DNA of 64,000 nucleotides from an uncultured Pseudomonadota bacterium (GTDB lineage: Bacteria > Oederibacteriota > Muellerivitia > Muellerivitales > Muellerivitaceae). Positions 47,401 to 64,000 of the stretch are shown one piece after another (within the stretch, counting starts at the first letter, position 1; each line of letters opens with the position of its first letter). The notes beneath the pieces are model-generated. The model saw only the letters and a program-made list of their open reading frames with translations, did no database searches and was not told the DNA's origin. Made by a program: the position numbers and the translations under genes. Location of the stretch: the NCBI GenBank assembly GCA_963836235.1, contig CAWIIP010000002.1, positions 128,001 through 192,000 of the forward strand, given 5' to 3'.

Positions 47401-47597
47401 GCCGGATTGTCCCCTGGCGGTACGTCCCATTCCAAAGAATCCAGATTCACCCCGGTCAGGCGCACGGTGCAGCCGCCGCTGGCGGTGACGATTTCGTTTC
47501 CGGAAACCTTAAGCAGGGGAGGAGCGGCTTGCGCGGGAGTTGGACCGAAAAAAGTGGAACCCAAAAGCACAAAAAGCGAAAGAAAGAAAAAGTTCAT
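44484..47597 (-). CDS. Glycoside hydrolase family 5 with long Thr/Pro linker and T9SS-like CTD
   Basis: [25 protein letters not shown] (acid/base Glu), HIY, VFIEEFG (nucleophile Glu), C-terminal [21 protein letters not shown]. Start uncertain; the track start at 47756 lies inside the IS end. Confidence 0.9.
45459..45882. repeat. Near-identical 222-bp tandem duplication within the GH5 linker
   Basis: The unit beginning GGTCGGGGTTCCGGTGTTGACCAGCGTC occurs at 45459 and 45681; a partial third copy lies near 46027. Confidence 0.85.
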
Positions 47598-47700
47598 TTC
47601 GCCCCGGGACGTTTTAAGCCGGGAACCAAAGAACGTTTTCGTTTTGAAAAATAAGTTTTGTGGAGACCTGTTCAAAGTGTCACCCGATACACTGGTTAAA

Positions 47701-48357
47701 CCGGAATTTCCCAGATGACCTTCTCTGAAAACATTGCCGGGTAATTTGTTTCTCATTATATCGCCCCCCCCCCCCCCGCTTCTTCCATCCGAATCCGGAA
47801 TTTTCCGTCCTGGGCCACTGAAATAAGCCCCAGGAAAAGGTTTCTGTGCCCAAAAAAGCTGAAATTGACCTTCTGGAAAGCCAATTCTCGTTGTGAGCGC
47901 ACACCTATCCTGCGGTAGTCGCTCGGGTTGAAGCCTTGATGCCTTCCTGCGGTTATCGCAGTACTGGCGCTCGCGGCCTTACCATTGCCAGTAGCCGTAT
48001 CCGATTGAGGATTTCAGCAAACAGGCGTCGGGAAACCATCACCTCCGCCATCTGGAAAATAACGTACCGCGAATGACGGATGACATTAGCCCCGATCTTG
48101 ATGAGTTTTTCCCTCAAGGTCGTTAGCGACCAATGTTTCACCAGTTCTGGCAGTGCCAGTCGGCGCAGGAAGTTGCCCAGATTGTAGGCCAGGGCGAATA
48201 GTTGTAAGCGCACTTGGTTGTCCGCGAAGTCGTGGCAGCTTAGTCTTGTCCACTTCATCGCATACTTTCCCTCTTTGATCCACTGCTCAGCCGTGCCTCT
48301 TCCGTTGTAGAATTTCACCACCTGGGGTGCCGGTCGTCGCATGTTCGTTACGAAGAA
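47701..48357 (-). mobile_element. IS1380-family remnant (3' part)
   Basis: Transposase C-terminal fragment plus a candidate right end CATCTGGGAAATTCCGG at about 47701-47717. Boundaries approximate. Confidence 0.75.
47953..48342 (-). pseudogene. IS1380 transposase C-terminal fragment
   Basis: (VTN)MRRPA..FYNGRGTAEQWIKEGK..RLSCHDFADNQVRLQLFALAYNL..LREKLIKIGA. Confidence 0.9.
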
Positions 48358-49276
48358 ATCCCATTAGTGTTGATTTACCTGTTCCTCTACCTCCGATAAT
48401 GGCATTTAACCAAGGGTTAAATTTTGCTGTTAGTGGTACTCCATTACCCATGTACTTAGCGCTTTTTACCTCAATTTGATCAATTATTATTGGACTGTGG
48501 ACATTTGGATCGTCCTGGGTATCTGTAGATCGTTTTATCGAATGAATACCATCAAACAAACCTAGCCGTAAACCCTCCAGACTTGGGTATGTCATTTTCA
48601 CCCACGTAAATCTTCGATTTATTTCCGAAGGTTTGTGAGAATCCGATCCAATAATTTCCGAGAGAACCCTTTTTGAAGAATGATCAGTAAATATTTGTGG
48701 TCTTTGGGAACCAATATCTTTAAATTCGACGGCCGTCAAACCTTTTGAACCTAGAGCCTGTTCTAATGCTTTCCCTGTAAGTTTAAAAAGACCTGCATGG
48801 GAATCATCGACATGCGCGGGAATTGGAATTCCACCTGCGGAAACGACTACTTCTACAACCTTTTCAAATGTTAGATCAGTAACGGCATCAGATTCACCAG
48901 CAGTTCCCTTATATCCAACCGCTCCTCTTAAAGCATCCAAATCGGCCGTTGTTTTGTTTGGGTCCAAAATAACCAATAAATGAATGCCGGGATTTACACT
49001 TATTTCCATTCCCGGGAATAAAACTAATGGTTTATAACCCACGGGCTTTTCTTGATCTAAAACTGCCAAGGCATTTTTTAAAGGATCAACCCAAGCTCCA
49101 GAATTGTGGTCTGTAATAACAACACCATCAAAGCCACCACGCATAAAATCAAGAATCCAATCTCTTGGGGAACGAGCTTTTAAACTTGGATCACCCTTTC
49201 CATAGTCAATGGAGGCGGGAGTATGCGTGTGAAAATCGAATTTCCACCAGCGAGAACCTGGGAATTCTAAACTCAT
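48287..49276 (-). pseudogene. PHP-domain/AAA-ATPase (TrlF/Ppl-like), truncated by the IS1380 remnant
   Basis: WWKFDFHTHTPAS, ITDHN, GMEIS, PAH, GSDSH, then Walker A GGRGTGKST followed immediately by IS-derived sequence. Confidence 0.85.
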
Positions 49277-51942
49277 TAAGACTCACCAAAAAGTCTGATT
49301 AATTGTTTAAATGATTCCGGTTTGTGTTCATCCCACGCTTCTTGCCGTATATATAACGGTTGGTAGGTTTTACCGCGTTCGGCTTTGGTAGCGTCTTCGC
49401 ACCATTGAATAAGACGGCCCCACTTTTCCGGGTCGTCCAAGTCTTCTCTACCCTTCGTCTCAATGATCCAAACGTTTTTCTGATCCTGTTTTACGATGAA
49501 ATCTGGGTAGTAGTTAGAAATGAACCCATCGGCGGTTCGGTATTCGATCTTGAAAAAGGTACTTTGGGAATTCTTAATGAACGAGATTATGTCGTCACAA
49601 TCGTCAAGGAAGAAAGCAAACTCAAGCTCAAGGTGGCTATCGCCGATGATCTTATTAAAAATTGATTTTTTAGGAATCAAATATTCCTGGTTTTTAACCA
49701 CAAAGGGGCGAGTCTTGCTCAATTTAATGTAATCCTTAACCTCGGTAGCCCCCTTGTCTTGGACAGTTAGATCATTAATGGCCTTTTTCAGCGTCTCCCT
49801 TAAGGTCTTATTTACTTCCGGTTCAGAAAGGTTCCTAAGAGTATTAAAGTCATCCAAGGGGACTTTTTGGCCAAAGAGGTACTTTTCAGTGAACTCCATT
49901 AGCTTTCCAAAAAGAATGTCTTTTCCGCCCACCAACCGAAGGTCTCGCATTATTGAGGTGGTAAAGTAGGAAATGGCGTTCTGAAAATTCGGCTCGGAAT
50001 CGGTGTCTAATTCGGTAACGTGGCTGATTTCATCCTTGTCGATATCCTTAAAGACGATCTGCCTTTTCTCTTCCTCGGTGTACTGCTTTAGGGAAACAGG
50101 TTTAAACTTTAGGTTCCCCACTTTGATGTCGTTTAAGTTCTTATATTCCCTATAAATCCTGGGCGCTAATACAGGCAGAACAATATCCAAGCTTTCTATG
50201 TCTTTTTTGGGATTTTCCCGATCTACTTCAATCACTAAAGGGGATCTAGGGTTTTTATCCCCCATAGGGGTGTACTCGAACTCAACACCTTCGATCTTGA
50301 TGGATTCCACAAATTCAATGAATTTAGAGGTCCCGATAACGCTTACTTTTTCTGATACGTCTTCACCCCGGAACATCCGCCTAAGGCCACGACCTAGCGT
50401 TTGTTCAGGTAATATTTTGGATTCGTATTGCCTTAACCCAACAATGGAAACAACGTTTTGCACATCCCACCCCTCTTTTAATACCATTACCGAAACGACT
50501 GCTTTATAGGGGCTTTCCATGCTGTCAATTTCTCTGCTGGCTTTACGAAGTATGTCCAAATCTTCTTTGTTTTTGTTGGTATTGCTTTCGGAGATTTCGC
50601 CGTTGTTTTTAGTATGAATAACCAACACCGCGTCTTTTAATTCTTTAAAAGTAGCTTCCAAATATTCGGCTACTTCATCGCAATTTTTGGTGTCATCGGT
50701 CATTATGAAAAGAACCGATTTCTTGTTAAGTTTGATCAATTCATCGTAAACCTTTTTCCATTCATAAACCCCAAGATGTAAATAATCCCGAAATTGTTCA
50801 CAGAATTTAGAACTTTTTCTCTCCTGTAATTTTGCCCTAGAAGCCTCATCAGGGAGAACGGGTGTTTTGACGACTTGTTGGCGAATGGCTTCCACAAGGG
50901 GATAATCGCTGATCGTTTGGACAAAGATCCCACCCCCTTCATGTTTTGGTGTGGCCGTAACGTCAAACTGGGCAGAAAGTTTCCCACCCTTTATCTTCAA
51001 TTTATTGGAAATTTCCTCGATAGCCTTAAACCCAGCTTGGGTATTGCTGTGAATATGATGGGCCTCGTCGTTGAGGATTACTAAATCGGAAACCTCTCGA
51101 ACGATCTTCCCTAAATCAGCTTGGGAATCGTTCGTTTTGCCGGTTGGTTTAGTCCCCAGAAAATAATCCTCTGTGTTTTCATCCTCTAAAGAAGGATTAG
51201 TCTCATTGAGGTGGATACGGTGGATATTGGTTAAGAAAATGTTCCCAGTATTGGAAATGTTCCCAATCTCGTCCTGAATATGTAGAGTCACTTGAAAATC
51301 ACTTCTCCAATCCTGGCCCTCGTAACCATTCTCCGGTAGAACAGGGTCCTCGTTGAATATCCTAAGACCATCAAAGTCCACCCGAAGCCGATCCAAAACG
51401 ATGATGTTCGGAGCCGTAATCAAAAAATTGGTGGAAAGATCAGAATCGGGCTCATATCGCTTGTGGAAGTAGGACCAGGCCACCAACAAACTCATTACCT
51501 TGGTTTTTCCTGCCCCGGTGGCGAGCTTCATGACGTAACGGGTCCAGGTCTCTTCAAACATCCCCTTGCTTACTTGTTCGGAAGAGTCGTAACGAAGCAA
51601 GGAATAAGGATCGTGCGCCTTTTCTATCTCATAAAGCCAAATAGCCGATTCGACTGCTTCTCTTTGGGCGAAGTAATATTGAAATTGACGGGGATCCCCA
51701 TTGGGACCCGGGACGAAATGTTCTGTGTTGAACCAATAATTCAGGAGGGTCCTGGTCGTATGGCACGCACCTTCATAACCCCGTTTTCGCCAACTTTTCA
51801 CACCTTCCCTAATCTTATGAACAAGAGGGGGTAAAAGAAGGGTAAAAGTATCGCCAAGGACAGTCTGTTCTCCTGGATACCAACGAATTGCAGGATCGAG
51901 AATGACATGGGGATCGCGAGGGAAATCAGGTGAAAGGGGCAT
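49276..51942 (-). CDS. res: Type III restriction enzyme Res subunit
   Basis: KLATGAGKT, NDEAHH, LKEGWDV, EQTLGRGLR, C-terminal YPDF..IETKG nuclease motif. Confidence 0.92.
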   Translation of the reverse strand: MPLSPDFPRDPHVILDPAIRWYPGEQTVLGDTFTLLLPPLVHKIREGVKSWRKRGYEGACHTTRTLLNYWFNTEHFVPGPNGDPRQFQYYFAQREAVESAIWLYEIEKAHDPYSLLRYDSSEQVSKGMFEETWTRYVMKLATGAGKTKVMSLLVAWSYFHKRYEPDSDLSTNFLITAPNIIVLDRLRVDFDGLRIFNEDPVLPENGYEGQDWRSDFQVTLHIQDEIGNISNTGNIFLTNIHRIHLNETNPSLEDENTEDYFLGTKPTGKTNDSQADLGKIVREVSDLVILNDEAHHIHSNTQAGFKAIEEISNKLKIKGGKLSAQFDVTATPKHEGGGIFVQTISDYPLVEAIRQQVVKTPVLPDEASRAKLQERKSSKFCEQFRDYLHLGVYEWKKVYDELIKLNKKSVLFIMTDDTKNCDEVAEYLEATFKELKDAVLVIHTKNNGEISESNTNKNKEDLDILRKASREIDSMESPYKAVVSVMVLKEGWDVQNVVSIVGLRQYESKILPEQTLGRGLRRMFRGEDVSEKVSVIGTSKFIEFVESIKIEGVEFEYTPMGDKNPRSPLVIEVDRENPKKDIESLDIVLPVLAPRIYREYKNLNDIKVGNLKFKPVSLKQYTEEEKRQIVFKDIDKDEISHVTELDTDSEPNFQNAISYFTTSIMRDLRLVGGKDILFGKLMEFTEKYLFGQKVPLDDFNTLRNLSEPEVNKTLRETLKKAINDLTVQDKGATEVKDYIKLSKTRPFVVKNQEYLIPKKSIFNKIIGDSHLELEFAFFLDDCDDIISFIKNSQSTFFKIEYRTADGFISNYYPDFIVKQDQKNVWIIETKGREDLDDPEKWGRLIQWCEDATKAERGKTYQPLYIRQEAWDEHKPESFKQLIRLFGES

Positions 51943-54125
51943 TAAACTTTCACCTCAACTACTTTGGTTGTGTCGTTTCCAAAAATGTCGATCACTTTGA
52001 CTGCAATTTTATATTTACCCTTAGAAGGATACTCGTACTCGGCGCTTTCCATCTCGAGGGAGCGATCTTTATCAGTGCGGAAAGTCTGCCATTGGTTCTC
52101 AAAAATAAACCCTCCGGTCCAAACATCTCTTTCTTTTCCCTTTTCGTCCACCTGCTTTATTATCTCCTTACGGCTCTCATAGTCGAAGTCCACGGCCCAA
52201 TAGTCGATCCAGTCTGTCCATTTCTTTGTGAGCACTTCCCTTTTTACAATGCCCTTTTTGTCCTTGGTGATCTTCACGACCTGGCCGTTCTCAACGGTTA
52301 CTTTAGAACCGCCTGGTTTAAGGGATTCGGAAACAGCTTCCACGTCATCCTGGGTGTAGAAAACACCAAAATTTTTGAGGACAACGGTGGCTTTCATCCC
52401 TTTTATTTTGGGCAACACCTCACCATAAGCCGCGTCAAAGAATTTAACCTGATTCTTTTCAACAGCACGGCGGTCAAAAACATCTTTAGGAATGTACTTC
52501 AGGGACAAGTTAATTCCGTGACGGTTAGCTTCATCTTTATAGGTTTCGATTAGGCCCATTTCAAATTCAAACCCAAGAACATCAACCTTTGTAAGCTTTA
52601 ACTTTTTACAGGACTCAATTATTTCCTGAACCTGGCTAATGGTAACAGGTGCATCCAAGGGGCCAACGAAAACAGCTACACCGCCTCTTTTACCATGAAA
52701 TGGAGCTAGCTGTTGAACACGCTCTCCTTTGTAAGCTTGCAAGATAAGCTTTAGATAATCCTCCTCCTTCTGAAGGGATTGTTTCTTTCGTTCCTTCTCT
52801 GGTAGGTTTGGGTTAATTCCTACAAAGTATTGACGTTCATATTTGCCTAAGTTGAGAATTTCAAAACTACGATAGGGTTTTGTATCCTTTTTTAGTTCTC
52901 GTTGTGCCCCTATAAGGCGTTTACGAGTCGTATGAATTGAGAAACGACCTAGGTCACACCCGATCCATTTGCGGCCAAGTTTTTCAGCAACTGAAAGAGT
53001 CGTCCCGGAACCACAAAAAAAATCAGCAACCAGATCAGTGTCATTTGAGGAGGCTTTAATAATTCGTTCTAGTAATGTTTCAGGTTTTTGGGTCGCATAA
53101 TTAGTTCTTTCCTCGGCCATTGAGTTAACTTCTGAAATATCAGTCCAAATATCACCCAATGATTCCCCTTTTTCTTCATCTAAATATCTTATTAATCTTT
53201 TATTCCCACTTGAGGTTACCCAAATTTTGTTTTGTTTTTCAAACTGTTTAATTGAATCTTCCGAATAATCTCCCAAATCACAATCACGAAATAATCTTCC
53301 TTTTTTATCAGGTCGAAATTTTGTTTTAATAAAATTTTCGTCGTAGGGTTTATAAGCACCGTTCCAAGTCCATTTCTCGGACTTGGAATAAAATAGTATA
53401 GAGTCAGAATTCCTAGCATATTGGCCAGATGTCGCTTTAGCTCCCCGGACTGGCTGCCTTCGCCATCTAATTTCATTTCGAAAATTTTCTAACCCAAATA
53501 ATTCCTGCATTACCAGACGAATTACACTATTCAACCTCCAATCACAATGAACGTAAATAGAGCCATCGTTTGCCAATAAATCCTTCATTAATTTTACCCG
53601 CTCGTACATCATTGATAAATATGAGTCGGCTCCTCTACCCCATGTGTCTCTATAGGCCACGTCTTCTATTACACTTGGCTCTTTTTCTAACAGTCCTTTG
53701 TCGCCAATCTCTAAGTTAATAGAAAAATCTGATCCAATATCAAAAGGAGGGTCGATGTAAATGAGTTTCAAACCACCCACTTCATCGATCTCTTGGCGCA
53801 AAGGCCCATTTTTTAGAGATGAAAGGACTAGTTTATTGTCACCCCAAATAAGTTTATTACTCCAACCACTAGCCTGACGGCCGCTTTGGAGATCTAAAGA
53901 AAAGAGATCCGCCACCTGGCCAGTTTTTTCTGACCTTGGTTCGTCGATTTGTTCGATGACTTGGAACGGAAGAACTGCATTCGTGACTTCTTGGGACTTC
54001 CCTTGCCACACAAGCTCAACTTCAGGAGCATCGGCAAAGAGAGAAAGGCGGTATTTGGGTGGAAGAGGTTCTCCCCGGTCGACCATGGCTTTGATTTGTT
54101 CTTTTTCTTGATCGGAAAGGTACAC
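51942..54125 (-). CDS. mod: Type III R-M adenine methyltransferase Mod
   Basis: IYIDPPF, YATQKPE, DFFCGSGTT; coupled to res. Confidence 0.92.
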   Translation of the reverse strand: MYLSDQEKEQIKAMVDRGEPLPPKYRLSLFADAPEVELVWQGKSQEVTNAVLPFQVIEQIDEPRSEKTGQVADLFSLDLQSGRQASGWSNKLIWGDNKLVLSSLKNGPLRQEIDEVGGLKLIYIDPPFDIGSDFSINLEIGDKGLLEKEPSVIEDVAYRDTWGRGADSYLSMMYERVKLMKDLLANDGSIYVHCDWRLNSVIRLVMQELFGLENFRNEIRWRRQPVRGAKATSGQYARNSDSILFYSKSEKWTWNGAYKPYDENFIKTKFRPDKKGRLFRDCDLGDYSEDSIKQFEKQNKIWVTSSGNKRLIRYLDEEKGESLGDIWTDISEVNSMAEERTNYATQKPETLLERIIKASSNDTDLVADFFCGSGTTLSVAEKLGRKWIGCDLGRFSIHTTRKRLIGAQRELKKDTKPYRSFEILNLGKYERQYFVGINPNLPEKERKKQSLQKEEDYLKLILQAYKGERVQQLAPFHGKRGGVAVFVGPLDAPVTISQVQEIIESCKKLKLTKVDVLGFEFEMGLIETYKDEANRHGINLSLKYIPKDVFDRRAVEKNQVKFFDAAYGEVLPKIKGMKATVVLKNFGVFYTQDDVEAVSESLKPGGSKVTVENGQVVKITKDKKGIVKREVLTKKWTDWIDYWAVDFDYESRKEIIKQVDEKGKERDVWTGGFIFENQWQTFRTDKDRSLEMESAEYEYPSKGKYKIAVKVIDIFGNDTTKVVEVKV

Positions 54126-55444: not shown

Positions 55445-56329
55445 CTATTTAAATATCTCATTCAGCACGTATGCCAACCTTATCCCAGCCTTCTCAAGCT
55501 GTTGGTCCACGATGGGGCGCATTTTATCAAAGTAATCACCCGGAAGGGGCTTATCGCTGTAATCCTGGGTCCCTGGGTCCATTCCTTTGTAGACCTTAGT
55601 CTTGGCGATCATGTAACTCTCGAAAACCCAATTTTTCTCACTCCCCTTGGTCCAGGTGGCCGCCTGGTCCCCGGGGATCGCCTTTTCAAGGGTGGAGGCC
55701 AGCTCCCGGGGATCCTCCTCGGTCTTAGACTCAATTAGATGGTCCCAAAGAGCGTGTAATTTGATTTTAGCCCCGTGGCCACGGTGGCCAGGGGCTTTGA
55801 ACCGGACCATCTTCTCGTTTCCCCCGCGGTCGCCGTCATCGGCACAATGAAGGGGTTGGTGTAAGTCGCCCATGAAGTGGACGACGAATTTTAGGGCCTC
55901 TAAGCGCTTGGATTTAGGTTGGGTTTCATCCCCCAAAACACCTTCAAATATCTGGAGCTGGTTGATGACGCAATCATTATTGGGGCAATAATCCTGCTCG
56001 TCTTTAAGGGTTAGGTCTTTCCGGATAGGGAGGTCGATGAAATGCCACGGGGCTGTCTCACGGCGCGATTCACGGATTTGGTCCGCCCAATTTGAAATAC
56101 TGGCCAGATCGTCCGGCTGCAATGAAGTCACAAGCTGAATTGCGGGCTTTGCCTGTGCCGATTCCATAGAAGAATCGGCCCCCTGGTCCAGGATGGAGGC
56201 TAATTTTGCCTTGGCGGCCGTGGCGAGGTTGTCCTGGGCGATATAGGCAATGGTTTCGTGGCCGACCGGACCCCATGCGGCCGCCGGCAATGTCCCAAAA
56301 AGATTTAAACAAAGTACGGCAAAAAGCAT
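55445..56329 (-). CDS. Secreted S1/P1 nuclease
   Basis: AAA|WGPVGH, WAD, WHFID, HFMGDLHQPLH, DRGGN, LHALWD, AGIRLA. Start uncertain. Confidence 0.92.
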   Translation of the reverse strand: MLFAVLCLNLFGTLPAAAWGPVGHETIAYIAQDNLATAAKAKLASILDQGADSSMESAQAKPAIQLVTSLQPDDLASISNWADQIRESRRETAPWHFIDLPIRKDLTLKDEQDYCPNNDCVINQLQIFEGVLGDETQPKSKRLEALKFVVHFMGDLHQPLHCADDGDRGGNEKMVRFKAPGHRGHGAKIKLHALWDHLIESKTEEDPRELASTLEKAIPGDQAATWTKGSEKNWVFESYMIAKTKVYKGMDPGTQDYSDKPLPGDYFDKMRPIVDQQLEKAGIRLAYVLNEIFK

Positions 56330-56614
56330 CCCGAAAGCCCTCAAGCTTTCGAAGGATTGTGCGAAATTCCTAAAGGTCAAAGGGGGTTTGTTTGACCTGA
56401 TAAATGGAATTTTGCAAAAAAGGAGGGGTATCAGGCCCAGCGAATTGATAATCTTCGCGGCCTTCGACGAGGCTTCAAGCCGAGGAGAAAGCTTTGGGGG
56501 TGCCAATACCGGGGGTATTGGTATACCGGAGAGGTGTGACTTCGTCGAAATTAGGGGCCATAGCGTGAAAAATATTTTCATTTTTTGTACTCAATTCCTA
56601 CTTCTTTTTAAAAA

Positions 56615-57223
56615 TCAATTATTAGGCGTTTGATGAGGTTTAATTCTGGTCCTGGCCCGGTCCGCTCTCGGAGGCTGATTGTGTTTGCGGGAGTTCAGCG
56701 CCCACCCGATTCCTGTCTTATAATACCGCCACAGCCAGTGCTGGATGAGACCGCCTCTCCTCCCTAGCTTTTTTGCCACATCATTAGTTTTCATCCCTTC
56801 CGCCAGGCAGGCAAGCGCCTGCAACTTTTCCCTCACCCACGGTCGTTCCTCTTTTGCCAAAAAGGACTTAATCTCCTGCAAGTTCATATTCCGCACAAGG
56901 CGAGGATGGAAAAATCCCTTGTCTGTCCAATTCTTTGATAGCGCATTGAGAGGGACCTTTCGTTCAAGGATCCTCGTTATTGAAGAAAAGGAACCGGCAA
57001 GAAATACCGAGAGTTTCAATAGCACGTGAACAGATTGGACTCCTTCTTGCTCCCATCGTCCCCATTCCTCAAGCGTGCATCCACAATTGTCGGCAGCTTG
57101 TTCTTGGGTAAGGTTCTTTTCCAAGCGGAGTTCCCTGATTACTTCCCCGGTTTTTCGCTGAACATCTTTCCGTGTGAGCTTTACCCTCGCGGTGAGCGAT
57201 TTTTGGGAGTCGAATCCTTTCAT
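56615..57223 (-). CDS. XRE HTH plus IS630-type HTH protein, paralog of 40996-41571
   Basis: GEVIRELRLEKNLTQEQAADNCGCTLEEW..KLQALACLAEGMKTNDVAKKLG. Confidence 0.82.
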   Translation of the reverse strand: MKGFDSQKSLTARVKLTRKDVQRKTGEVIRELRLEKNLTQEQAADNCGCTLEEWGRWEQEGVQSVHVLLKLSVFLAGSFSSITRILERKVPLNALSKNWTDKGFFHPRLVRNMNLQEIKSFLAKEERPWVREKLQALACLAEGMKTNDVAKKLGRRGGLIQHWLWRYYKTGIGWALNSRKHNQPPRADRARTRIKPHQTPNN

Positions 57224-57543
57224 TTTTCATACTCAATTCTCAACTCTTGAAAGTAATCTAAAATCCGCCGTTTGATGAGGTTGAGTTCAACGACCTTCAG
57301 TTCCCTGCCCAAAAGGCCGACGATTTCCAGCTTGGCGTCCCGGAAGACCATATTGAAAGCTAGTTCAAACCATTCGGTTTGTTCTGCGGGGGCAAGGTCT
57401 TGGTATGGTTTGTGGAGACGTTTGGGCCAAGGATAATCCATGAGCAGTTCCGGGCCCAAAAAGCCATTCATGAAATTCGCCACACGGAGGGCGGCGGGAT
57501 TTTTATTGCTGTGGGGGTTATAAGAACCAGGGGTTTCAGACAT
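57220..57543 (-). CDS. Hypothetical protein
   Basis: AGGAG RBS; overlaps the next start (ATGA). Confidence 0.7.
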   Translation of the reverse strand: MSETPGSYNPHSNKNPAALRVANFMNGFLGPELLMDYPWPKRLHKPYQDLAPAEQTEWFELAFNMVFRDAKLEIVGLLGRELKVVELNLIKRRILDYFQELRIEYEK

Positions 57544-57558
57544 GAATATCTCTCCTCA

Positions 57559-57894
57559 TTAAATCCGCCGTCCGAAAAAGGCCGTTAAGGATGCCCATGA
57601 AGCGACCAGGGCAAAGAGCCAAAACCAAAACGGATGAGGTAAGGTCGTAAAGACCGATACGGTCCCTGACGAAATGAACCGGCCCAAGACCGAGAAGATG
57701 TGGTAGGTGATAATCAGCCTATAGGCCGAAAAGACCAAAAGCACGGCCAAGGCGATCCCGAATAGTATCCTGACGAAATTCATTCCCGCCAATTTTGAGA
57801 AATGGAAAAACCTTTCGAGGTGTTCGTTGTTCATAAGGGCCGACCTTTCAGTCGGTGGTTCCTCCGAAACGATCCTGCTGTCTGTGTTTTCCAT
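57559..57894 (-). CDS. Hypothetical membrane protein
   Basis: Two hydrophobic segments; co-oriented in the cluster. Confidence 0.6.
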   Translation of the reverse strand: MENTDSRIVSEEPPTERSALMNNEHLERFFHFSKLAGMNFVRILFGIALAVLLVFSAYRLIITYHIFSVLGRFISSGTVSVFTTLPHPFWFWLFALVASWASLTAFFGRRI

Positions 57895-57908
57895 AATCCA
57901 ATCCTTCC

Positions 57909-58187
57909 TCAATAGTCGATCACTTCTTCCCACCGGCTCACTTTAGACGCGGGTTCCGCCTCGTGAAAGCCGAGGCCGTTGCACCTGGGGCAATCGGCCC
58001 CGCCGGGCAAGACACCTCTGCCCCCGCACGGCTTACAGCTTTCCAACCATATCGGCTGTTTCCCGCTTCCGTTGCAATCCCCACAAGGGAATTTTCCGGA
58101 ATAAAATATGCCTTCCAGCCAAAAACCCGGCTCCCCTGGCTCGTCGCCCGTCCCCCCGCATTTTTGGCAGTCGACTTCGCCTCTCAT
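57909..58187 (-). CDS. Small DnaJ-type CxxCxGxG zinc-finger protein
   Basis: CQKCGGTG, CGDCNGSG, CKPCGGRG, CPRCNGLG. Confidence 0.75.
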   Translation of the reverse strand: MRGEVDCQKCGGTGDEPGEPGFWLEGIFYSGKFPCGDCNGSGKQPIWLESCKPCGGRGVLPGGADCPRCNGLGFHEAEPASKVSRWEEVIDY

Positions 58188-58298
58188 GGTGCCGTCCTGG
58201 ATTGCATTTTAGGGCCATCCAAAAAAATCCTGAACAGAAAGTCGAATAATTTTAGACCGGGATACCGCCCCGCCGGCCAGGCCGGCGGGGCGAAAATC

Positions 58299-58667
58299 CT
58301 AATACTCGTTGGGGACCATCAGGACAGGTTTACCCTCCTGCATAGCGACGTAAAACTTCCAGGTTCCCTCCGGGAAATCCGTGAATTCGATCTCCTGCCG
58401 CACAATTTCTGGCCGGTCGTCGTCCTCCTTCATCGTAAGGATCGCCTTGGAGGCTTTGACTTCAAGCGTCCAAAACTGGATTTCCTCCTTCCGGGCATAA
58501 CTGAAAATGGCGTCGATCAGCCAATAGGCCCCGGCAATCTCCGCCACGGCCTGGACCCCTTCGGTGTAAATGCCTCCCGTAATGTGCTTGAAGTAGCTCA
58601 CGCTACCCGTGCTCATGGCAAAAACCTCCTCTATCCTCAACTTCTTTACGGCTTCTTCCCTGTCCAT
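58299..58667 (-). CDS. DUF6876-like protein
   Basis: TGS..YFKH..YTEGV..AGAYWLIDAI..IQFWTL..QEIEFTDFP..LMVPNEY. Confidence 0.75.
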   Translation of the reverse strand: MDREEAVKKLRIEEVFAMSTGSVSYFKHITGGIYTEGVQAVAEIAGAYWLIDAIFSYARKEEIQFWTLEVKASKAILTMKEDDDRPEIVRQEIEFTDFPEGTWKFYVAMQEGKPVLMVPNEY

Positions 58668-58681
58668 AGATGCTCCTTATC

Positions 58682-58743
58682 TTTATTTGGGAGGGGCCCC
58701 CTCCGGGGGGCGGCCCTCAAAGAATCTGGGCCGCAACACGGAG
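58682..58743. repeat. Structured leader module A, copy upstream of the DUF6876-like gene
   Basis: CTCCG..GCGGCCC-TCAAAGAATCT-GGGCCGC..CGGAG nested stem. Confidence 0.7.
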
Positions 58744-59043
58744 GCGAGAGAGGGTTGGTGGGTGGAGATTGAGCCGTGCGAAAGAAGCACCTAGCCAACC
58801 CCAGCAAACCGCTTCGGGCAAAGTGCCGAAGGGCGGACGCCGCGGCGGACGCATCTAGGCATTTAGCGGCCCTTGCCCCTGGGCCAGACGGTATTTGGCG
58901 GCCCAGGGGTGCGATCTATCAGGCCAGCGGCACGATGAGGTTTGCGAACCTTGAAGCCGTTCGATCTTGGGGGTCCGGGGGGATCTTCCGCCCGGGCTAG
59001 GAGAGGGGCGCGGGGAGAGGGGTTTTTCTTTCCCCGAAAATTC

Positions 59044-59124
59044 CGAGGCCCGGCATAGGGAAGGTTACACGGCCGCTTTGCGGCCGGCGAACCTTCTTCA
59101 AACCCGCCAGGGTGCCGGGCCGAG
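59044..59124. repeat. Structured module B, copy 1
   Basis: GCCCGGCA..GAAGGTTACACGGCCGC-TTT-GCGGCCGGCGAACCTTC..CCC-GCCA-GGG-TGCCGGGC. Confidence 0.8.
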
Positions 59125-59160
59125 CAAAACAAAAGGCCCCCCTAAGAGGGCCTCCGGTCT

Positions 59161-59550
59161 TCAAGCCGTAGGGTGTGAAGATTTTTCCAAGGGGTGTTTC
59201 TTGGAACACTTAGGGCAAAACTTCCCGTCTCTGCCCTCGACGGGCAAGGAATCCTTCAAGAGAATTTCCGTGTTGCAAACTTGGCACCAAGTGGCGTAGG
59301 TATCATCCGAAAGGATTTGAGGAACCAATTTTTTAATAAGGCCCTTCCCTACCGTGGCCCGGCCAAATTCATAAGCCCAACGGGTGGCGGTGTACTTATC
59401 CTTTCCCGGCCAAGTAAGGCGGCGGTATTCGTCTCCCTGGGCGGCGTCCCCTCCGTCGTCGTCCTCCACCTTGAAAACTTGTAAGCCGGGAATGTCTGAC
59501 ACCACATCGGACAAAACCCCACCTTCCATAAAAATGATAATTTTCGGCAT
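59161..59550 (-). CDS. Hypothetical protein with C-terminal Cys4 zinc ribbon
   Basis: AGGAGG RBS; IIIFMEGGVLSDV; CQVC..CPKC. Confidence 0.7.
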   Translation of the reverse strand: MPKIIIFMEGGVLSDVVSDIPGLQVFKVEDDDGGDAAQGDEYRRLTWPGKDKYTATRWAYEFGRATVGKGLIKKLVPQILSDDTYATWCQVCNTEILLKDSLPVEGRDGKFCPKCSKKHPLEKSSHPTA

Positions 59551-59560
59551 AACGTCCTCC

Positions 59561-59857
59561 TTAAAGTTCGTATTTTTCGGCAAAGTTTGAAAGTGATTCA
59601 GCGGAAGCGGCACAAACGTCCAGCGCGCGCGCGGCGGCCAAGCCGACAAGGGCGCTCCCGCCTTCCTCAAAATCCAGTTTTGAAAATATCGTTTCGGCCT
59701 GGTCGGTGAGGTAGTTGTTTAAAGCTCCCGCAACTTCCAAAAGGCCGTGATGGCTTACGAGAAACGCTAAAACGTCATAAGGCTCGTAAGTCTCAAGGCG
59801 GTATTTTTTAAACTCCTTTACGGTTTCTTTTTCCGGCCCTAACAATTTGATTTCCAT
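59561..59857 (-). CDS. Hypothetical protein
   Basis: AGGAGG RBS; co-oriented after radC. Confidence 0.7.
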   Translation of the reverse strand: MEIKLLGPEKETVKEFKKYRLETYEPYDVLAFLVSHHGLLEVAGALNNYLTDQAETIFSKLDFEEGGSALVGLAAARALDVCAASAESLSNFAEKYEL

Positions 59858-59897
59858 AAATCCTCCTAAAATTTTTCATCCCCAAAGGGGCGATTTC

Positions 59898-60386
59898 TTA
59901 AACCAAAAGCCCTGCGGTGCGGAAGGAAAAGTGGCCTTCGTGGGTGACTATCAAGTGATCATGAACGGTTATCCCCAGGGCACGGGCGGCGGTGATAATT
60001 TGGCGGGTCAATTGCTTGTCCCCTTCCGATGGTTCAAGGCTTCCGGCTGGGTGATTGTGGGAAAATATGATCCCCGTGGCGTTTAACTCCAAAGCTTTTT
60101 TTAGTACCTCTCTTGGATAAACGGCGGTATGGTCCACGGTTCCTTCGCTGTTCAAAACCGTTTCTAAAACGTGGTTGCGGTGGTCGAGGTACATGGTGAC
60201 AAAAGCCTCTTTGTCCCTGCCTCCGATGTATTTGGCAAAATAGGCCACTACATCATCTGGGCTTGTTACAACCGGGCCTCTCTCGTAATCGGTCCTTGCT
60301 TCGGACCATGAAACCGGGGGAACCGTGGGGGGAATTTTGAACATCACTTCCAAAGGCATTTCTAACTGCTTGATTCTCTTGCTCAT
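59898..60386 (-). CDS. radC: RadC-like JAB-domain protein
   Basis: E..LD..N, GTVD..VYPREV, HNHPAG..PS..D, DHLIV. Confidence 0.92.
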   Translation of the reverse strand: MSKRIKQLEMPLEVMFKIPPTVPPVSWSEARTDYERGPVVTSPDDVVAYFAKYIGGRDKEAFVTMYLDHRNHVLETVLNSEGTVDHTAVYPREVLKKALELNATGIIFSHNHPAGSLEPSEGDKQLTRQIITAARALGITVHDHLIVTHEGHFSFRTAGLLV

Positions 60387-60403
60387 TTTGAACGCTCCGC
60401 TTT

Positions 60404-60634
60404 TTTATTAGAGGAGAGAGCACCCTCCGGGTGCGCCCCCTCAAAAATCCTTGGGGGCGCATACGGAGCGAGTAAGGTGTTTGTGTTGGGGCAAATCAAT
60501 GTCGGCGGGTCCTGCGCCTTGGTGTTAGCAGACCGGGAAAATTCCCAAACAGGTTTTGGGCCGAAAGACGAGGAACGAGGCGTGGCCCGTTTGGGAATTT
60601 AGGCGCTGACCGATCCCGGCGGCGATAGCCGCCC
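60404..60634. repeat. Structured ~230-bp leader (extended module A), copy upstream of radC
   Basis: Aligns along its length to 63707-63938 with compensatory stem changes. Confidence 0.85.
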
Positions 60635-60899
60635 GTCGATTTGGTTTGCGTCCTCTATGTCTTTCGTTTCTGGGGTTGCCAGGGGTCACTGTCCCTTGGC
60701 TAGGGTGGGGATATAGGGGAGGGTCTTTTCCCTCCCCCTGGGGGGTCCGGGGGATGGCTCGAACGAGCCCGCCGCCCGGGCTAGGGTGGGCACCTGGCCC
60801 GTCGCTTTCAAAGCGAGGGCCTCGCAGTGGTGGTGCAAACAGCATTGAAGCTGTTTGCAAAAGGGTAGGGGTACTTCCCTTCCCTGCTTTAATGATTTT

Positions 60900-60987
60900 C
60901 GAGGCGCGGCAAAGGGAAGGTTACACGGCCAAAGGCCGGCGAACCTTCCTCAATCCCGATAGGGGCCGCACCGAGACAAAGAACACC
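60900..60987. repeat. Structured module B, copy 2 (includes the 37-bp direct repeat)
   Basis: GCGGC..GAAGGTTACACGGCC-AAA-GGCCGGCGAACCTTC..CCC-GATA-GGG-GCCGC. Confidence 0.8.
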
Positions 60988-61265
60988 TTAATCGGCTTTT
61001 CCCCATACACCTTCCCGACCCTTCTCAAGATAGACGCGTTTCACGTAAAGTGTAATATGTAGGCCTGGCCCCTTTTTCTATGGGGAAACGCCGCCCGGTC
61101 TACCGTGTGGAAATTGGAGTCGCGGGGAAAAGTTAATCCATAAAAACCGACGAACGAATTTGGATTTTAGTGAGGAGGTTTTTAACTTTGAGGGCCGGCG
61201 ATTAAAAAATTACACAGGCAAAAGGAGGAAATCTGTCCAGAGGGTCCAAAGCCCCTTTAATGGAA

Positions 61266-61862
61266 TTACTGTGAGGGTGGGAGAGGGAGAGTTGTGATAT
61301 TTAATTTTTTATTGACGTATTGAATCCATTTCTCAGCGGAATTTCTTTGGTCATCTGTCTGGGCCGTTTGAACAGCCGCATTAAAATATTTTAACGAATC
61401 TTGCCACCTATCCTCTTTAGTTAATTTTACTCCATACGAGAAGTAAGAATTAAAGTTTTCACCACCTTCCAAATTTGAAGAATTGGAAGCTTGGAGGTCG
61501 GCATTCATATTTTTCTGGTTAAGTTTATTCCAATCAGAGGTAATGGCGTCTACGATTAAAGGAATAAAACCTAATAGGAAACCTGGAACAACATCCAAAA
61601 CTATCCATCCACCATCAACACCATTACTCAACGAGCTTGTTTGGGTGGTATATCCAGGTTTCCTAAATTCAACATTATGAGTTTTGTTAGATTCTAGAGG
61701 AACAGAAACTGGGGTAGTTCCCCTTTGCAAACCATCAACATAAACTTCTGCACCAGGGGGATTGGAGGAAAATTCAACAGGTTCTGCACCACCTTTAAAG
61801 ACCGTTGCGCAACCGGTAGAAATAAGGCTGAACACTAACATTAAAGCCATTAACTTTTTCAT
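61266..61862 (-). CDS. PEGA-domain lipoprotein
   Basis: Lipobox STGC-ATVF, SNPPGAEVYVDG..GTTP..KPGY; AT-rich. Confidence 0.85.
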   Translation of the reverse strand: MKKLMALMLVFSLISTGCATVFKGGAEPVEFSSNPPGAEVYVDGLQRGTTPVSVPLESNKTHNVEFRKPGYTTQTSSLSNGVDGGWIVLDVVPGFLLGFIPLIVDAITSDWNKLNQKNMNADLQASNSSNLEGGENFNSYFSYGVKLTKEDRWQDSLKYFNAAVQTAQTDDQRNSAEKWIQYVNKKLNITTLPLPPSQ

Positions 61863-62008
61863 AACACTCCGAATGATCAAGCGTCCACTTATTTCATCGA
61901 GATATAAGGTTAATTGTCGTGACTACCCTTGGTCAACACAAAAATAGGCTAGGAGGGGAGGCACTTCCGTTGCACACCATCCTTTTTGCGACAGCCATGT
62001 GCAGGTAT

Positions 62009-62326
62009 TTAGGCACTCTTTTTCCCGCGGGCGAGTTCCCTTTCAAATAGAATCCGCACCCCGAAAGCGTGAAGAACCTTTTCTAAACTCGAAAGGGTTG
62101 GATTTCCCTTCTCGGAAAGCATCGTGTAAAGGGATTCCCTCGCAAGTTGTGTTTCCTTGGAAAGCTTTTTCATCCCGCCTAGGGCGTCGGCCACGTTCTT
62201 CAATGCCTTCAAAAAGTATTTAAAATCTCCGGTTTCCCAAGCGGCGTTTATGTATCGGACCCGTGTTTTAAGGTCTTGAAGTTCTTCAAACAAATAACTT
62301 TTATGGTCAATCAATCCAAATTTCAT
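62009..62326 (-). CDS. Addiction-module antitoxin (HTH, HI1420-like)
   Basis: YINAA..GD..FLKAL..GGM..L..LARESLYTMLSEKGNPTL. Confidence 0.9.
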   Translation of the reverse strand: MKFGLIDHKSYLFEELQDLKTRVRYINAAWETGDFKYFLKALKNVADALGGMKKLSKETQLARESLYTMLSEKGNPTLSSLEKVLHAFGVRILFERELARGKKSA

Positions 62327-62694
62327 TTCACGCTCCCTTTAAAAGCCGCCCATAGCTTGGTGGCTTTCTTTGTGTCATTATCCTGATTGTCTTTTTCTCC
62401 CCCACAAACCACGACGATGATGGCTCCCTTATGATAGCCGTAATAAACCCGGAAACCTCTTCCGTAATGAATCCTTAATTCCCAAAGGCCCCCGGTCTTT
62501 GGCAGGTCGTGATGATCGCCAAAATTCCCGTCCTCCATCCGGTCAACCGCCATCCGTATAAGGTCCTTGGCGGTTTCGTCCTTTAAGCGGCGGTGCCACT
62601 CCTTGTATAAAACCTTACCGTCTACCTCCAAATATTTAACTACAAAGGGGTGGTTTTCCATGCCTGAACCTAGTGTAATATTTATATTACTCAT
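62323..62694 (-). CDS. RelE/ParE-family addiction-module toxin (HI1419-like)
   Basis: GNFGD..GLWELRIHYGRGFRVYY..CGGEK..Q..D; overlaps the antitoxin start. Confidence 0.9.
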   Translation of the reverse strand: MSNINITLGSGMENHPFVVKYLEVDGKVLYKEWHRRLKDETAKDLIRMAVDRMEDGNFGDHHDLPKTGGLWELRIHYGRGFRVYYGYHKGAIIVVVCGGEKDNQDNDTKKATKLWAAFKGSVK

Positions 62695-62716
62695 TGTCAA
62701 ATCTTCCTTTCGAAAA

Positions 62717-62753
62717 CAATCCCGAAAGGGGCCGCACCGAGACAAAGAACACC
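62717..62753. repeat. 37-bp direct repeat (partial module B)
   Basis: 36/37 identical to 60951-60987. Confidence 0.9.
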
Positions 62754-62755
62754 CC

Positions 62756-62792
62756 AAAAAAAGCCCCCCGGTTTGAAACCGGGGGGCTTTTC
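62756..62792 (-). terminator. Rho-independent terminator after ardC, possibly bidirectional
   Basis: AAAAAAAGCCCCCCGGTTTGAAACCGGGGGGCTTTT hairpin with a T-tract on each strand. Confidence 0.85.
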
Positions 62793-62815
62793 TTCCTGAA
62801 AGGATGGAGCTGTTA

Positions 62816-63688
62816 TTAAGCGGCTTCCTCCTTCTTTTCAAATTTCACGCCTAAGATAAAGTCGGCTGCGGATTGGGCGAGTGATGCCGCCCGGAAAATG
62901 GCGCGGGTGTCATCCTTTAAAACCTTGATCCAGTTTTGGACATAGGCGGCGTGTTGGGTGTCGTATTCGTAGCCGACATGCCCAGCCAAGAAAGCCCCGC
63001 CTATTTCGGCGACAAGTTCCTCGAAGGCATAATCAACTGAACCGAAAACCAGGGACTGCTTGCGGTTAAGCCGTTTCGGGTGGCCGCTCCAGTGGGTTAG
63101 CTCATGGTAACTCGTGGAAAAAAATTTCTCCTCCGTCTTGAAAGAACGGCGAGGGGGAAGGTTGATATAGTCCAAAGTCGGGGAGTAAAAAGCCTTGTCG
63201 GGGTTTTCTTCAACGATCTTCGCCCCGGATTGGGTGAGGATGCGCTCGGCTTCCTCGTTCTTGTTGAAAGGCTTTTCCTCGGCGCTCTTGGGCCGCAAGT
63301 GGTCGAGTCCCTCGGTTTGGTCCAGGTTGAAAACCGTAAAATATTTTAGGTATTTGATAACCTTCTTTTCAAAATCCCCTTCCGCTTTTTCCTCCTTCAC
63401 CGTCAAGGGCTTGAAGAAAATGACCTCAACCCCCTTGGCCCCGGCCTTGATGTTGCCTCCCGCTGTTTTGGCCTGTTGGTAGGTGAGCCAAGAGTTACAG
63501 GAAAAACCCTGGCGGCTCGCAACCGAGGTAAGCCAAATAACATTCACCCCCCGGTATGCCTTCCGGGTGGCGGCGTTCTTGGGGAAGTTTCCGGTTTTAA
63601 TCCAGGGCGTTTCCCAAAAAAGATTTCCTTTCTCCATGTCCTCCAAAATTTGGTTGGTGATTTTCTCCATCAAATCGTTTGTTTTCAT
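62816..63688 (-). CDS. ardC: ArdC-family ssDNA-binding/zincin antirestriction protein
   Basis: PW, YRGVN..L, WLTYQQAK..GG.I..G.KG, VFNLDQ, AFYSP..D.I.LP, HELTHWSGH..RL, YAFEELVAE, YVQNW. Confidence 0.93.
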   Translation of the reverse strand: MKTNDLMEKITNQILEDMEKGNLFWETPWIKTGNFPKNAATRKAYRGVNVIWLTSVASRQGFSCNSWLTYQQAKTAGGNIKAGAKGVEVIFFKPLTVKEEKAEGDFEKKVIKYLKYFTVFNLDQTEGLDHLRPKSAEEKPFNKNEEAERILTQSGAKIVEENPDKAFYSPTLDYINLPPRRSFKTEEKFFSTSYHELTHWSGHPKRLNRKQSLVFGSVDYAFEELVAEIGGAFLAGHVGYEYDTQHAAYVQNWIKVLKDDTRAIFRAASLAQSAADFILGVKFEKKEEAA

Positions 63689-63706
63689 CTGGCCTGCTCC
63701 CTTTGA

Positions 63707-63938
63707 TTTATTAGAGGAGAGCCGCCCTCCGGGTGGGCCCCCTCAAAAATCCTTGGGGGCCCAAACGGAGCGAAAGAGGTGTTGTTGTTGGGGTAAAACA
63801 AGATCGAGGGTCCTGCGGTGTTCCTTTAGCAGATCGGGAAAATTCCAAAACAGTTGTGGGGCCGGATAAGCCGACGAAGGAGGCCCGGCCCGTTTTGAAA
63901 TTTAGGCGCCGACCGATCCCGACGGCGTTTATCCGCCC
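63707..63938. repeat. Structured ~230-bp leader (extended module A), copy upstream of ardC
   Basis: Aligns to 60404-60634. Confidence 0.85.
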
Positions 63939-64000
63939 TCACCCTCCAGGTGAGGGCGAAGGTTGATAATGCCAACTCTATAAGAGTTGGTAAAAGCCGC

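Follow-up and report, generated by a model that had tools for sequence, protein, structure and literature searches.

What kind of control element is a folded repeat that recurs directly before functionally unrelated genes of a genomic island? This question is raised by a stretch of 64,000 nucleotides (nt), hereafter the window, from an uncultured bacterium deposited as a member of the Pseudomonadota and placed by GTDB in the family Muellerivitaceae of the Oederibacteriota (assembly GCA_963836235.1, contig CAWIIP010000002.1, positions 128,001 to 192,000 of the forward strand). The minus strand of the window carries a repeat of ~270 nt, here termed module A, with full copies directly 5' of a radC-like gene and of ardC. 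The setting is of general interest, as a conjugative element that enters a new host needs its anti-restriction and related genes expressed immediately, and only for a short time. The understood solutions to this problem are Frpo-type single-strand promoters and repressor-controlled promoters, and a third is seen in the promoter-less EGeRS1 leaders. Module A is real and under selection for folding. It appears to constitute a new family, and we tentatively favor the view that it acts as an RNA leader comparable to EGeRS1.

The sequence-only reading of this DNA had proposed that the regions upstream of radC and ardC (60404-60634 and 63707-63938) are copies of one repeat, and this was borne out by BLAST, by a repeat search and by a covariance model (CM R1) built on 18 copies. 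In a BLAST comparison of 60387-60640 of the minus strand (254 nt) with its own genome, the ardC copy was recovered at 81% identity over 241 nt (E 7.7e-56), together with a third copy elsewhere on the contig (74% identity, E 3.6e-34), which has another radC-like gene downstream. The repeat search returned three collinear blocks of 85, 79 and 85% identity (families D7, D11 and D10) at a spacing of 3301-3303 nt. The full, class 1 copy (60381..60648, minus strand; CM R1 242.3 bits, E 1e-73; RNA fold z -3.1) lies upstream of the radC-like JAB gene (59898..60386, minus strand; Pfam RadC, 3e-41). The class 2 copy (63683..63954, minus strand; CM R1 244.3 bits) lies upstream of ardC (62816..63688, minus strand), which encodes a zincin metallopeptidase with the Pfam domains ArdcN (3e-33) and MPTase-PolyVal (4e-44). 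A leader of the same kind had also been proposed for the DUF6876 gene (58299..58667, minus strand; Pfam DUF6876, 2e-29), and this proposal stands in part. A partial or variant copy at 58656..58866 (minus strand; CM R1 29.7 bits, E 7.7e-8) has in common with the full copies, as judged from alignments, only the linker, the hairpin P5 and the anti-Shine-Dalgarno (anti-SD) box, its 5' domain being different.

Read along the gene strand, module A comprises the helices P1, P2, a small P2a, P3a/P3b and P4, a linker, the hairpin P5, a CUCUCCUC box, a spacer, the Shine-Dalgarno sequence (SD) and the start codon. P1 is a short GC hairpin, which in the radC copy occupies 60618..60633 (GGCGGC-TATC-GCCGCC). 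P2 is a helix of 5-6 bp, and P3 consists of the 12-bp P3a and the 7-bp P3b, with a conserved apical loop of 17 nt and a bulge of 8 nt. In the radC copy the P2-P3 domain spans 60533..60619 on the minus strand (P2, 60533-38 with 60614-19; P3a, 60540-50 with 60589-99; P3b, 60558-62 with 60584-88) and carries both the conserved loop and the bulge. Its counterpart in the ardC copy spans 63834..63922 on the same strand (P2, 63834-39 with 63917-22; P3a, 63841-51 with 63892-902; P3b, 63859-65 with 63885-91). P4 has five base pairs and one bulged base (radC copy, 60510..60532, minus strand; TC-TGC / GCA-g-GA), and the linker that joins it to P5 is conserved, C/U/A-rich and rich in pyrimidines. In P5, a CUCCG/CGGAG helix (P5a) encloses a GC stem of 9 bp (P5b). 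Its minus-strand coordinates are 60425..60468 in the radC copy (P5a, 60425-29 with 60464-68; P5b, 60432-40 with 60453-61), 63727..63770 in the ardC copy (P5a, 63727-31 with 63766-70; P5b, 63734-42 with 63755-63) and 58701..58743 in the DUF6876 leader (P5a, 58701-05 with 58739-43; P5b, 58710-16 with 58728-34). Next come the CUCUCCUC box, an A-rich spacer of ~12 nt, the SD and the start codon. In the radC copy this expression platform lies at 60395..60418 (minus strand), with the anti-SD box CTCTCCTC at 60411-18, the SD GGAG at 60395-98 and the start codon at 60384-86; in the ardC copy it lies at 63697..63721 (minus strand), with the anti-SD box at 63714-21 and the SD GGGAG at 63697-701.

The ardC copy differs by a class-2 insertion of ~70 nt inside the P1 loop, which runs partly beyond the window end (63943-64000, continued in locus L002 at 1760-1815); it contains the hairpins CCAACTC..GAGTTGG and CTCACC..GGTGAG and, on the opposite strand, TTGATA-17 nt-GTTGGT. 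The gene strand of module A is also rich in C: among the 15 copies tabulated, C outnumbers G by 11-29 bases per ~260 nt. As paired arms supply G and C equally, this excess must sit in the unpaired segments. No coding or leader-peptide frame is kept open across the copies of module A, and a coding or leader-peptide reading was dropped for this reason.

Evidence that the folding matters comes from the pattern of substitutions. Every stem named in the sequence-only reading is present at its place: within CTCCG/CGGAG the inner stem is GCGCCCCC/GGGGGCGC before radC, GGGCCCCC/GGGGGCCC before ardC and GCGGCCC/GGGCCGC before the DUF6876 gene; CCGGGA/TCCCGG alternates with TCGGGA/TCCCGA, and AATTCCCAAAC/GTTTGGGAATT with AATTTCAAAAC/GTTTTGGAATT; and the CTGC/GCAG stem is likewise found. 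The covariation noticed there was retained in a larger set of copies, where compensatory change maintains six helices across seven genera. Among 26 distinct rows, both sides have changed at 24 of 46 pairs, 94.1% of 1076 cells pair as against 78.5% after shuffling (a value reached by 0 of 500 shuffles), and the covariation score is 0.293 as against at most 0.142 with partners slid by 1-3 columns; because the alignment was guided by the model and leans towards its structure, and because the rows are related, these figures are not probabilities. RNAalifold, run on a structure-blind MAFFT alignment of 18 copies, predicted 47 pairs, of which 20 show compensatory change. P3a has changed on both sides at all 12 of its pairs and exists in four or more self-complementary versions that are wholly different from one another, P5b has exchanged CG for GC in 5-7 rows at three pairs, and the outer two pairs of P4 are AU, UA, GC or CG among the copies, with 100% of cells paired. 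Several unpaired positions are also conserved across genera, namely the P3 loop, the CACAGAU bulge, the P4 loop and the linker UUUUCCAU-AACCAACA-CCUCUUU. Covariation thus backs selection for folding, in line with the earlier suggestion of a folded single-stranded DNA or RNA control element.

Module A does not stand alone. Hairpin blocks lie upstream of it at 58867-59130, at 60649-60990 and, past the window end, at 1760-2000 of L002; examples are GGGAAGGG..CCCTTCCC, CAAACAGC..GCTGTTTG, and CCCTAGCCCGG..CCCCCGGAaCCCCC followed by GACAACGTGGAaG. The block before the radC copy (60649..60990, minus strand) consists of further conserved hairpin modules that are contiguous with module A and no part of it. 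In other genomes, most copies are likewise preceded by such upstream modules, shuffled into a mosaic order; the whole leader is thus ~600 nt long, and module A is the gene-proximal part of a GC-rich, hyper-structured leader of that length. The GC content of 60649..60990 is 58.9%, and leaders in general reach 57-64%, compared with 50.6% for the genome and 50-53% for adjoining genes; with DNA parameters, the 611 nt upstream of radC fold with a z of -8.3 on the plus and -8.8 on the minus strand. Mosaicism extends to module A itself, one leader (L033) being made of the 5' part of another (L034) and the P3 of a third (L093). A 37-nt repeat with two copies of 97% identity was seen in the same region, one (60951-60987) at the 5' edge of the radC leader and the other (62717-62753) directly 3' of the ardC terminator hairpin (62757-62795), just preceding a canonical TTGACA-17-TACACT promoter of a HigB/HigA-like gene pair. 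Upstream of the ardC leader, a hairpin resembling a terminator (L002, ~2000-2030) was seen by eye; the scan did not call it, and it was left unused as evidence.

The distribution of module A is narrow. We sampled 99 genomes of the phylum FCPU426, 31 from the window's own family and 68 others. BLAST found copies in 8 genomes, all within the family, and the covariance model raised this to 10 of the 31 family genomes, which together contain 29 full copies and one cut copy, with weaker, hairpin-only matches in four more. In the other 68 genomes the model found no full copy, only one 20-bit match in a neighbouring family. An exact-pattern scan of GTDB genomes returned 29 stretches; nhmmer confirmed 13 as true copies, the other 16 being chance matches in unrelated taxa, and all 13 come from FCPU426 metagenome-assembled genomes or from one such genome labelled 'uncultured proteobacterium'. 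A pattern scan of metagenomes gave 24 stretches; two of them, L079 and L081 (the latter near-identical to the window), are true copies, and the other 22, from unrelated taxa, match by chance. Neither the 72,556 plasmid records of PLSDB, F included, nor 50,697 phage records contained a blastn match (word size 11 for the plasmids), and a pattern scan of IMG/VR gave no copy of module A.

The genes that follow module A are united by position rather than by function. Of 25 copies examined, six precede RadC, seven ArdC and one a DUF6876 protein, while nine precede proteins of 31-328 amino acids without a Pfam family (six distinct proteins). The two copies without a gene comprise one with only a 3-codon frame downstream and one that is a truncated module; in 23 of the 25, the spacing from module A to the SD and start codon is constant and the orientation matches that of the downstream gene. 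A conjugative setting had been suggested for these leaders, and this is supported in a related genome but is not seen in the window's own island. Contig 14 of the related genome G051, on which the complete element occupies about 15-78 kb, has an array with four full copies. Upstream of this array are genes for a VirB4/TraC-like ATPase, UmuC, ParA, ParB and a VirD4-like (type IV) coupling protein; the genes led by module A run in the same direction as those for transfer, and ArdC is also present. The transfer and ParAB genes beside these copies indicate integrative conjugative elements or their derivatives, although no relaxase or oriT was found on this contig with Pfam (at 1e-4, 1e-5 and E<=1) or NCBIfam. 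The island in the window has no transfer genes nearby; it encodes ArdC, the HigB/HigA-like pair, a PEGA protein, RadC, the DUF6876 protein, helix-turn-helix (HTH) regulators and an S1/P1 nuclease; a Type III restriction-modification system comes next. Module A is, on this showing, tied to the establishment genes of conjugative elements.

In G051 as in the island of the window, genes for SpoVG-like proteins are arranged divergently from the module-A arrays. They have leaders of their own (L064 350-600 and 3092-3322, plus strand, just right of the window; L067 3856-4150, minus strand), marked by a long conserved hairpin, TTTTTAC-CGCGCCCCCC ... GGGGGGCGC-GTAAAAA, ~50 nt before the start codon. 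In G051 contig 14, three adjacent genes for tyrosine recombinases (L067 13589-16715) interrupt the module-A array on the opposite strand, just ahead of a RadC gene whose N-terminus is missing, in a manner resembling a recombinase-trio insertion.

How, then, might such a leader work? We favor, with a probability of roughly 45% and hence tentatively, a cis-regulatory leader that acts as RNA in an EGeRS1-like manner, in which P5, the CUCUCCUC box and the SD would form a switch that hides the ribosome site. Predicted folds place the SD in pairing in 16 of 16 full copies, with a probability of being unpaired of 0.00-0.11 (mean 0.03; 0.01 in the radC copy), and in 14 of the 16 its main predicted partner is the CUCUCCUC box. 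For comparison, the mean for 70 other genes of the genome is 0.30, and 26% of them have values of 0.11 or less. When the RNA was made to start in the P5 loop, the predicted mean rose from 0.03 to 0.65, with a rise in all 16 copies, and when it was made to start after CGGAGG, so that the G-rich arm was gone, the mean returned to 0.07. The DUF6876 variant went from 0.25 to 0.96 on truncation. The two marks of a translational riboswitch-like element, a conserved, covarying 5' domain and an SD-hiding platform, are both found, as predictions only.

According to this model, the leader would be transcribed so that a sensor-like 5' domain (P1-P4, with its conserved loops, bulge and junctions) precedes the expression platform. 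With P5 closed, the CUCUCCUC box would pair with the SD, translation would be off and read-through transcripts would be silenced. With the 5' arm of P5 missing or held elsewhere, its G-rich 3' arm (GGGGGCGCACCCGGAGGG) would capture the CUCUCCUC box and free the ribosome site. The trigger might be a protein, a shorter transcript or processing, and the outcome would be genes that are silent in the resident element and allowed a burst after entry into a new cell. A candidate for the 'on' state, long-range pairing of a 5' GGGGGCGG box with the 5' arm of P5, was dropped since the two sides do not covary among variant copies.

The search for a source of such RNA was largely blank. No sigma-70 promoter was called near the leaders in 58200-64000, nor in the 1-kb intergenic region between ardC and the SpoVG-like gene. 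The host organism does use canonical sigma-70 promoters, as 9 of 46 regions upstream of its tRNAs match the canonical promoter at 10 or more of 12 positions, compared with 1.2% of shuffles. A hexamer scan of both strands of 20 copies (~720 nt each) revealed no positionally conserved pair and, in four copies, no candidate at all; the same scan was blank upstream of F ssb, where an Frpo-type promoter has been reported for F-like plasmids, and it therefore lacks power and does not exclude a promoter of that type. A check by eye for sigma-54, extracytoplasmic function (ECF)-type and Bacteroidetes-type boxes gave nothing consistent.

Several observations weigh against the RNA switch. No promoter for such an RNA was found within 450 nt upstream of the 20 copies, and the 24 sequencing runs listed include no RNA run with the locus. 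The DUF6876 variant is not clearly sequestered in the predictions, its SD lying near the control median; the 16 copies are related and so do not amount to 16 independent trials; and SD and anti-SD boxes are complementary by nature. The mode of change in the stems is a further difficulty: 150 cells have changed on both sides as compared with six on one side, and G-U pairs occupy only 25 of 1076 cells, a single terminal pair accounting for 21. Such near-pure Watson-Crick change is unusual for structured RNA and fits DNA folding at least equally, and sense and antisense strands fold equally well (mean z -3.0 and -3.3). Finally, the likeness to EGeRS1 is one of analogy, without homology, and the mechanism of EGeRS1 is itself left unexplained in the account of that system (PMC8708921).

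Two attempts at calling the active strand were rejected. Wobble pairs do not discriminate, there being 25 cells with G-U (sense) and 23 of 1076 with A-C (antisense G-U), the former almost confined to the terminal pair just mentioned and most of the latter coming from misaligned P2. By predicted energy, the antisense strand is the more stable one in all 21 copies when RNA parameters are used and in 18 of 21 when DNA parameters are used; shuffles show that this advantage stems from base composition (C exceeding G on the sense strand), and it was thus rejected as strand evidence.

The main rival is a DNA-based explanation, in which module A would be a non-canonical, folded single-strand promoter of the Frpo/ssi/ssp kind: the incoming template strand would fold into a mirror image of P1-P5 and be transcribed before the second strand is made, and expression would end once the DNA is double-stranded. 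Masai and Arai are said to have described the single-strand DNA promoter Frpo in 1997. The layout is as in F and ColIb, where a dispersed repeat of ~300 nt precedes anti-restriction and other leading-region genes; with covariation nearly all of the Watson-Crick type, the template strand can fold just as well; the leaders show no double-strand sigma-70 promoter, though the host uses canonical ones; and the shared orientation of module-A and transfer genes in G051 is compatible with transfer of the template strand. However, neither in sequence nor by the covariance model does module A resemble F, nor does blastn match it to one of the 72,556 plasmids, and its architecture differs, for the F strand before ssb forms one imperfect hairpin of ~340 nt while module A forms four to five short GC-rich hairpins, with a longest stacked helix of ~25 bp and no A/T-rich stretch for opening a -10 region. 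A DNA promoter also does not need conserved unpaired positions or the SD/anti-SD/anti-anti-SD logic. Moreover, the SpoVG-like genes, which have their own GC-hairpin leader, are encoded on the other strand, so that one transferred strand cannot serve all; no relaxase or oriT was found on G051 contig 14; and the pLS20 analogues lie on the non-template strand. We regard a single-strand promoter as possible, if rather unlikely. An improbable combination of the two ideas is a two-level 'arrival sensor', in which the template-strand mirror fold would start RNA polymerase in or just after P5, without canonical -35/-10 boxes, and short transcripts would expose the SD through capture of the CUCUCCUC box. 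Only short transcripts devoid of the 5' arm of P5 would then be translated, and read-through RNA from the resident double-stranded element would carry the full hairpin and be translationally dead. If true, single-strand promoters would gain a new class, one into which RNA proof-reading is built, and the idea could by analogy explain the EGeRS1 problem.

The branched 5' domain with conserved loops, followed by a predicted SD-sequestering platform, would also suit an ordinary riboswitch-like or protein-binding 5' untranslated region, unlinked to the state of transfer and served by an unrecognised promoter of its own further upstream. It would sense a metabolite or an RNA-binding protein encoded by the element, for which the divergent SpoVG-like protein is a candidate, its genes adjoining the arrays in both the window's island and G051. 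Against a metabolite signal speaks the functional unrelatedness of the downstream genes, whose common trait is residence on the element, and the missing promoter, the near absence of G-U pairs and the lack of an Rfam match do not help; we accord this view little weight. Strong folding on both strands and the mosaic leaders (L033 and the class-2 insertion in the P1 loop) could instead reflect a DNA-level element without a role in expression, be it a priming site or single-strand origin (ssi/sso), a roadblock to synthesis of the complementary strand or a recombination hot spot for cassette shuffling. The F single-strand promoter hairpin is described as doubling as a replication roadblock (bioRxiv 10.64898/2026.01.09.698686). 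Yet such a site needs neither the constant spacing to SD and start codon nor the gene orientation kept in 23 of 25 copies, and one origin per element would suffice where G051 contig 14 has four full copies, which renders this account still harder to credit. Least probable by far, and already disfavoured, is a selfish or neutral repeat, such as an insertion resembling a miniature inverted-repeat transposable element or a duplicated promoter region, with incidental hairpins. Many copies, a narrow taxonomic range and mosaic structure would be expected of it, but compensatory change keeps six helices across seven genera, the copies are placed at one distance before the start codon, and no terminal inverted repeats or target duplications were noticed.

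Other genes of the region were noted in passing. Downstream of the array lies the gene for the S1/P1 nuclease (55445-56581); as a homologue is found inside the G051 conjugative element (L126 16857-17753), the nuclease may belong to the cargo or machinery of the element. Two paralogous regulators (56615-57223 and 40996-41571), each with HTH_31 and HTH_23 domains, share 73% DNA identity over 300 nt, and a third two-HTH homologue occurs in the G051 element (L066 8939-9574); all are candidate element regulators. The Type III restriction-modification pair (49276-54125; Mod of 727 and Res of 888 amino acids) is followed by a transposase fragment (47953-48342), and together these may mark a truncated island edge. 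Nearby, 44484-47756 encodes a protein of 1090 amino acids with a GH5 cellulase domain and a long region of 12-nt periodicity (46 copies in a 50-nt repeat family).

The RNA-switch reading, though tentative, yields a testable three-part model comprising hairpin P5, the CUCUCCUC box and the SD, and about 30 natural variants with clear covariation are now on offer. Beyond mechanism, module A could enter Rfam-type libraries as a candidate family, and it provides a marker of the establishment gene arrays in FCPU426 elements, including their unknown small proteins.

It remains to place module A among known systems. A structured element upstream of radC at once recalls the radC RNA motif, which also occurs before other DNA-handling genes on mobile DNA. 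The comparison with Rfam, this motif included, that the sequence-only reading had called for gave no match on module A. With the 4227 models of Rfam 15, neither the gathering score nor E<=10 yielded a match there, only tRNA being found in the window and nothing in 100 kb of related element loci. The radC motif model, RF01754, matched no copy of module A and nothing at E<=10 in 57500-64000; across the whole genome it gave two matches elsewhere, on another contig, of 23.1 and 12.7 bits, below its gathering score of 40 bits. RF01754 has 149 positions and is listed for Proteobacteria (Weinberg et al. 2010, PMC2864571). In the converse direction, CM R1 had no match at E<=10 on the F leading region, and on 30000-65774 of pLS20 its best match (6.2 bits, E 0.27) is not at an EGeRS1 site. 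A partial search of the literature, confined to main texts, found no paper describing this element. The suggestion of a possible new family has thus gained ground, with no match in Rfam, RF01754, plasmids, phages, F or pLS20: compared with everything searched, module A appears to belong to no described family.

Among elements of conjugative plasmids, the Frpo/ssi/ssp sequences of F-like and IncI1 plasmids resemble module A in being repeats of ~300 nt before anti-restriction or early genes, with a strong single-strand fold and genes co-oriented with transfer genes. In F the leading genes point towards oriT in the same orientation as the tra genes, with oriT between them. The dispersed repeats of F and ColIb before leading-region genes were recognized by sequence similarity (Samuel 2024, PMC11541004), and the layout is also described in bioRxiv 10.64898/2026.01.09.698686. 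The difference lies in the absence of homology, in the one long hairpin of F as against a multi-branched module with short GC-rich stems, and in that no -35, -10 or UP-like elements can be placed in module A, though the same scan misses those of F too. The CUP elements of the IncN plasmid pKM101 and EGeRS2 of p576 are likewise conserved upstream repeats before ard or leading-region genes, but are described as short units of an operator and a double-strand promoter, bound by ArdK or Reg (PMC6289460; PMC8708921). In module A no promoter is seen, and helices rather than a palindromic operator are conserved. An attC-like cassette site was considered as well; the attC sites of integrons are simple imperfect hairpins at the 3' end of each cassette, next to an integron integrase, whereas module A is multi-branched and occupies the 5' side of genes, with a set distance to the SD.

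The most similar known system is, by analogy, the structured EGeRS1 leaders of the Bacillus plasmid pLS20. EGeRS1 is described as a conserved, GC-rich sequence of 400-600 bp with many inverted repeats, present in five copies upstream of establishment operons, including that of ardC; the ~325 nt before its ribosome-binding site form a four-branched fold, there is no sigma-A promoter, and experiments showed that read-through is blocked in the native orientation only and that the transferred strand is the non-template one (Val-Calvo 2021, PMC8708921). Module A, too, occurs in several copies per element before establishment operons (four full copies in G051 contig 14; two and a partial one in the window), has a conserved branched part abutting the ribosome-binding site, is richer in GC than its surroundings and folds very stably, the computed z of pLS20 EGeRS1-B being -9.6 as compared with -8.3/-8.8 for the radC leader. 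No housekeeping promoter is recognisable in EGeRS1, and scans in silico called none in module A; the predicted sequestration of the SD in module A would offer a possible translational block. The two differ in host phylum and have no sequence or covariance-model similarity, and the SD/anti-SD/anti-anti-SD arrangement predicted for module A is absent from the main-text passages on EGeRS1. Since every descriptive feature of EGeRS1 that was tested is found in module A, and homology alone is not, module A would be an unrelated element of the EGeRS1 kind rather than a member of a named family. On this analogy, an uncultured, deeply branching and unrelated phylum would have independently reached the EGeRS1 layout, with a GC-rich folded leader of ~600 nt before ardC and its neighbours.

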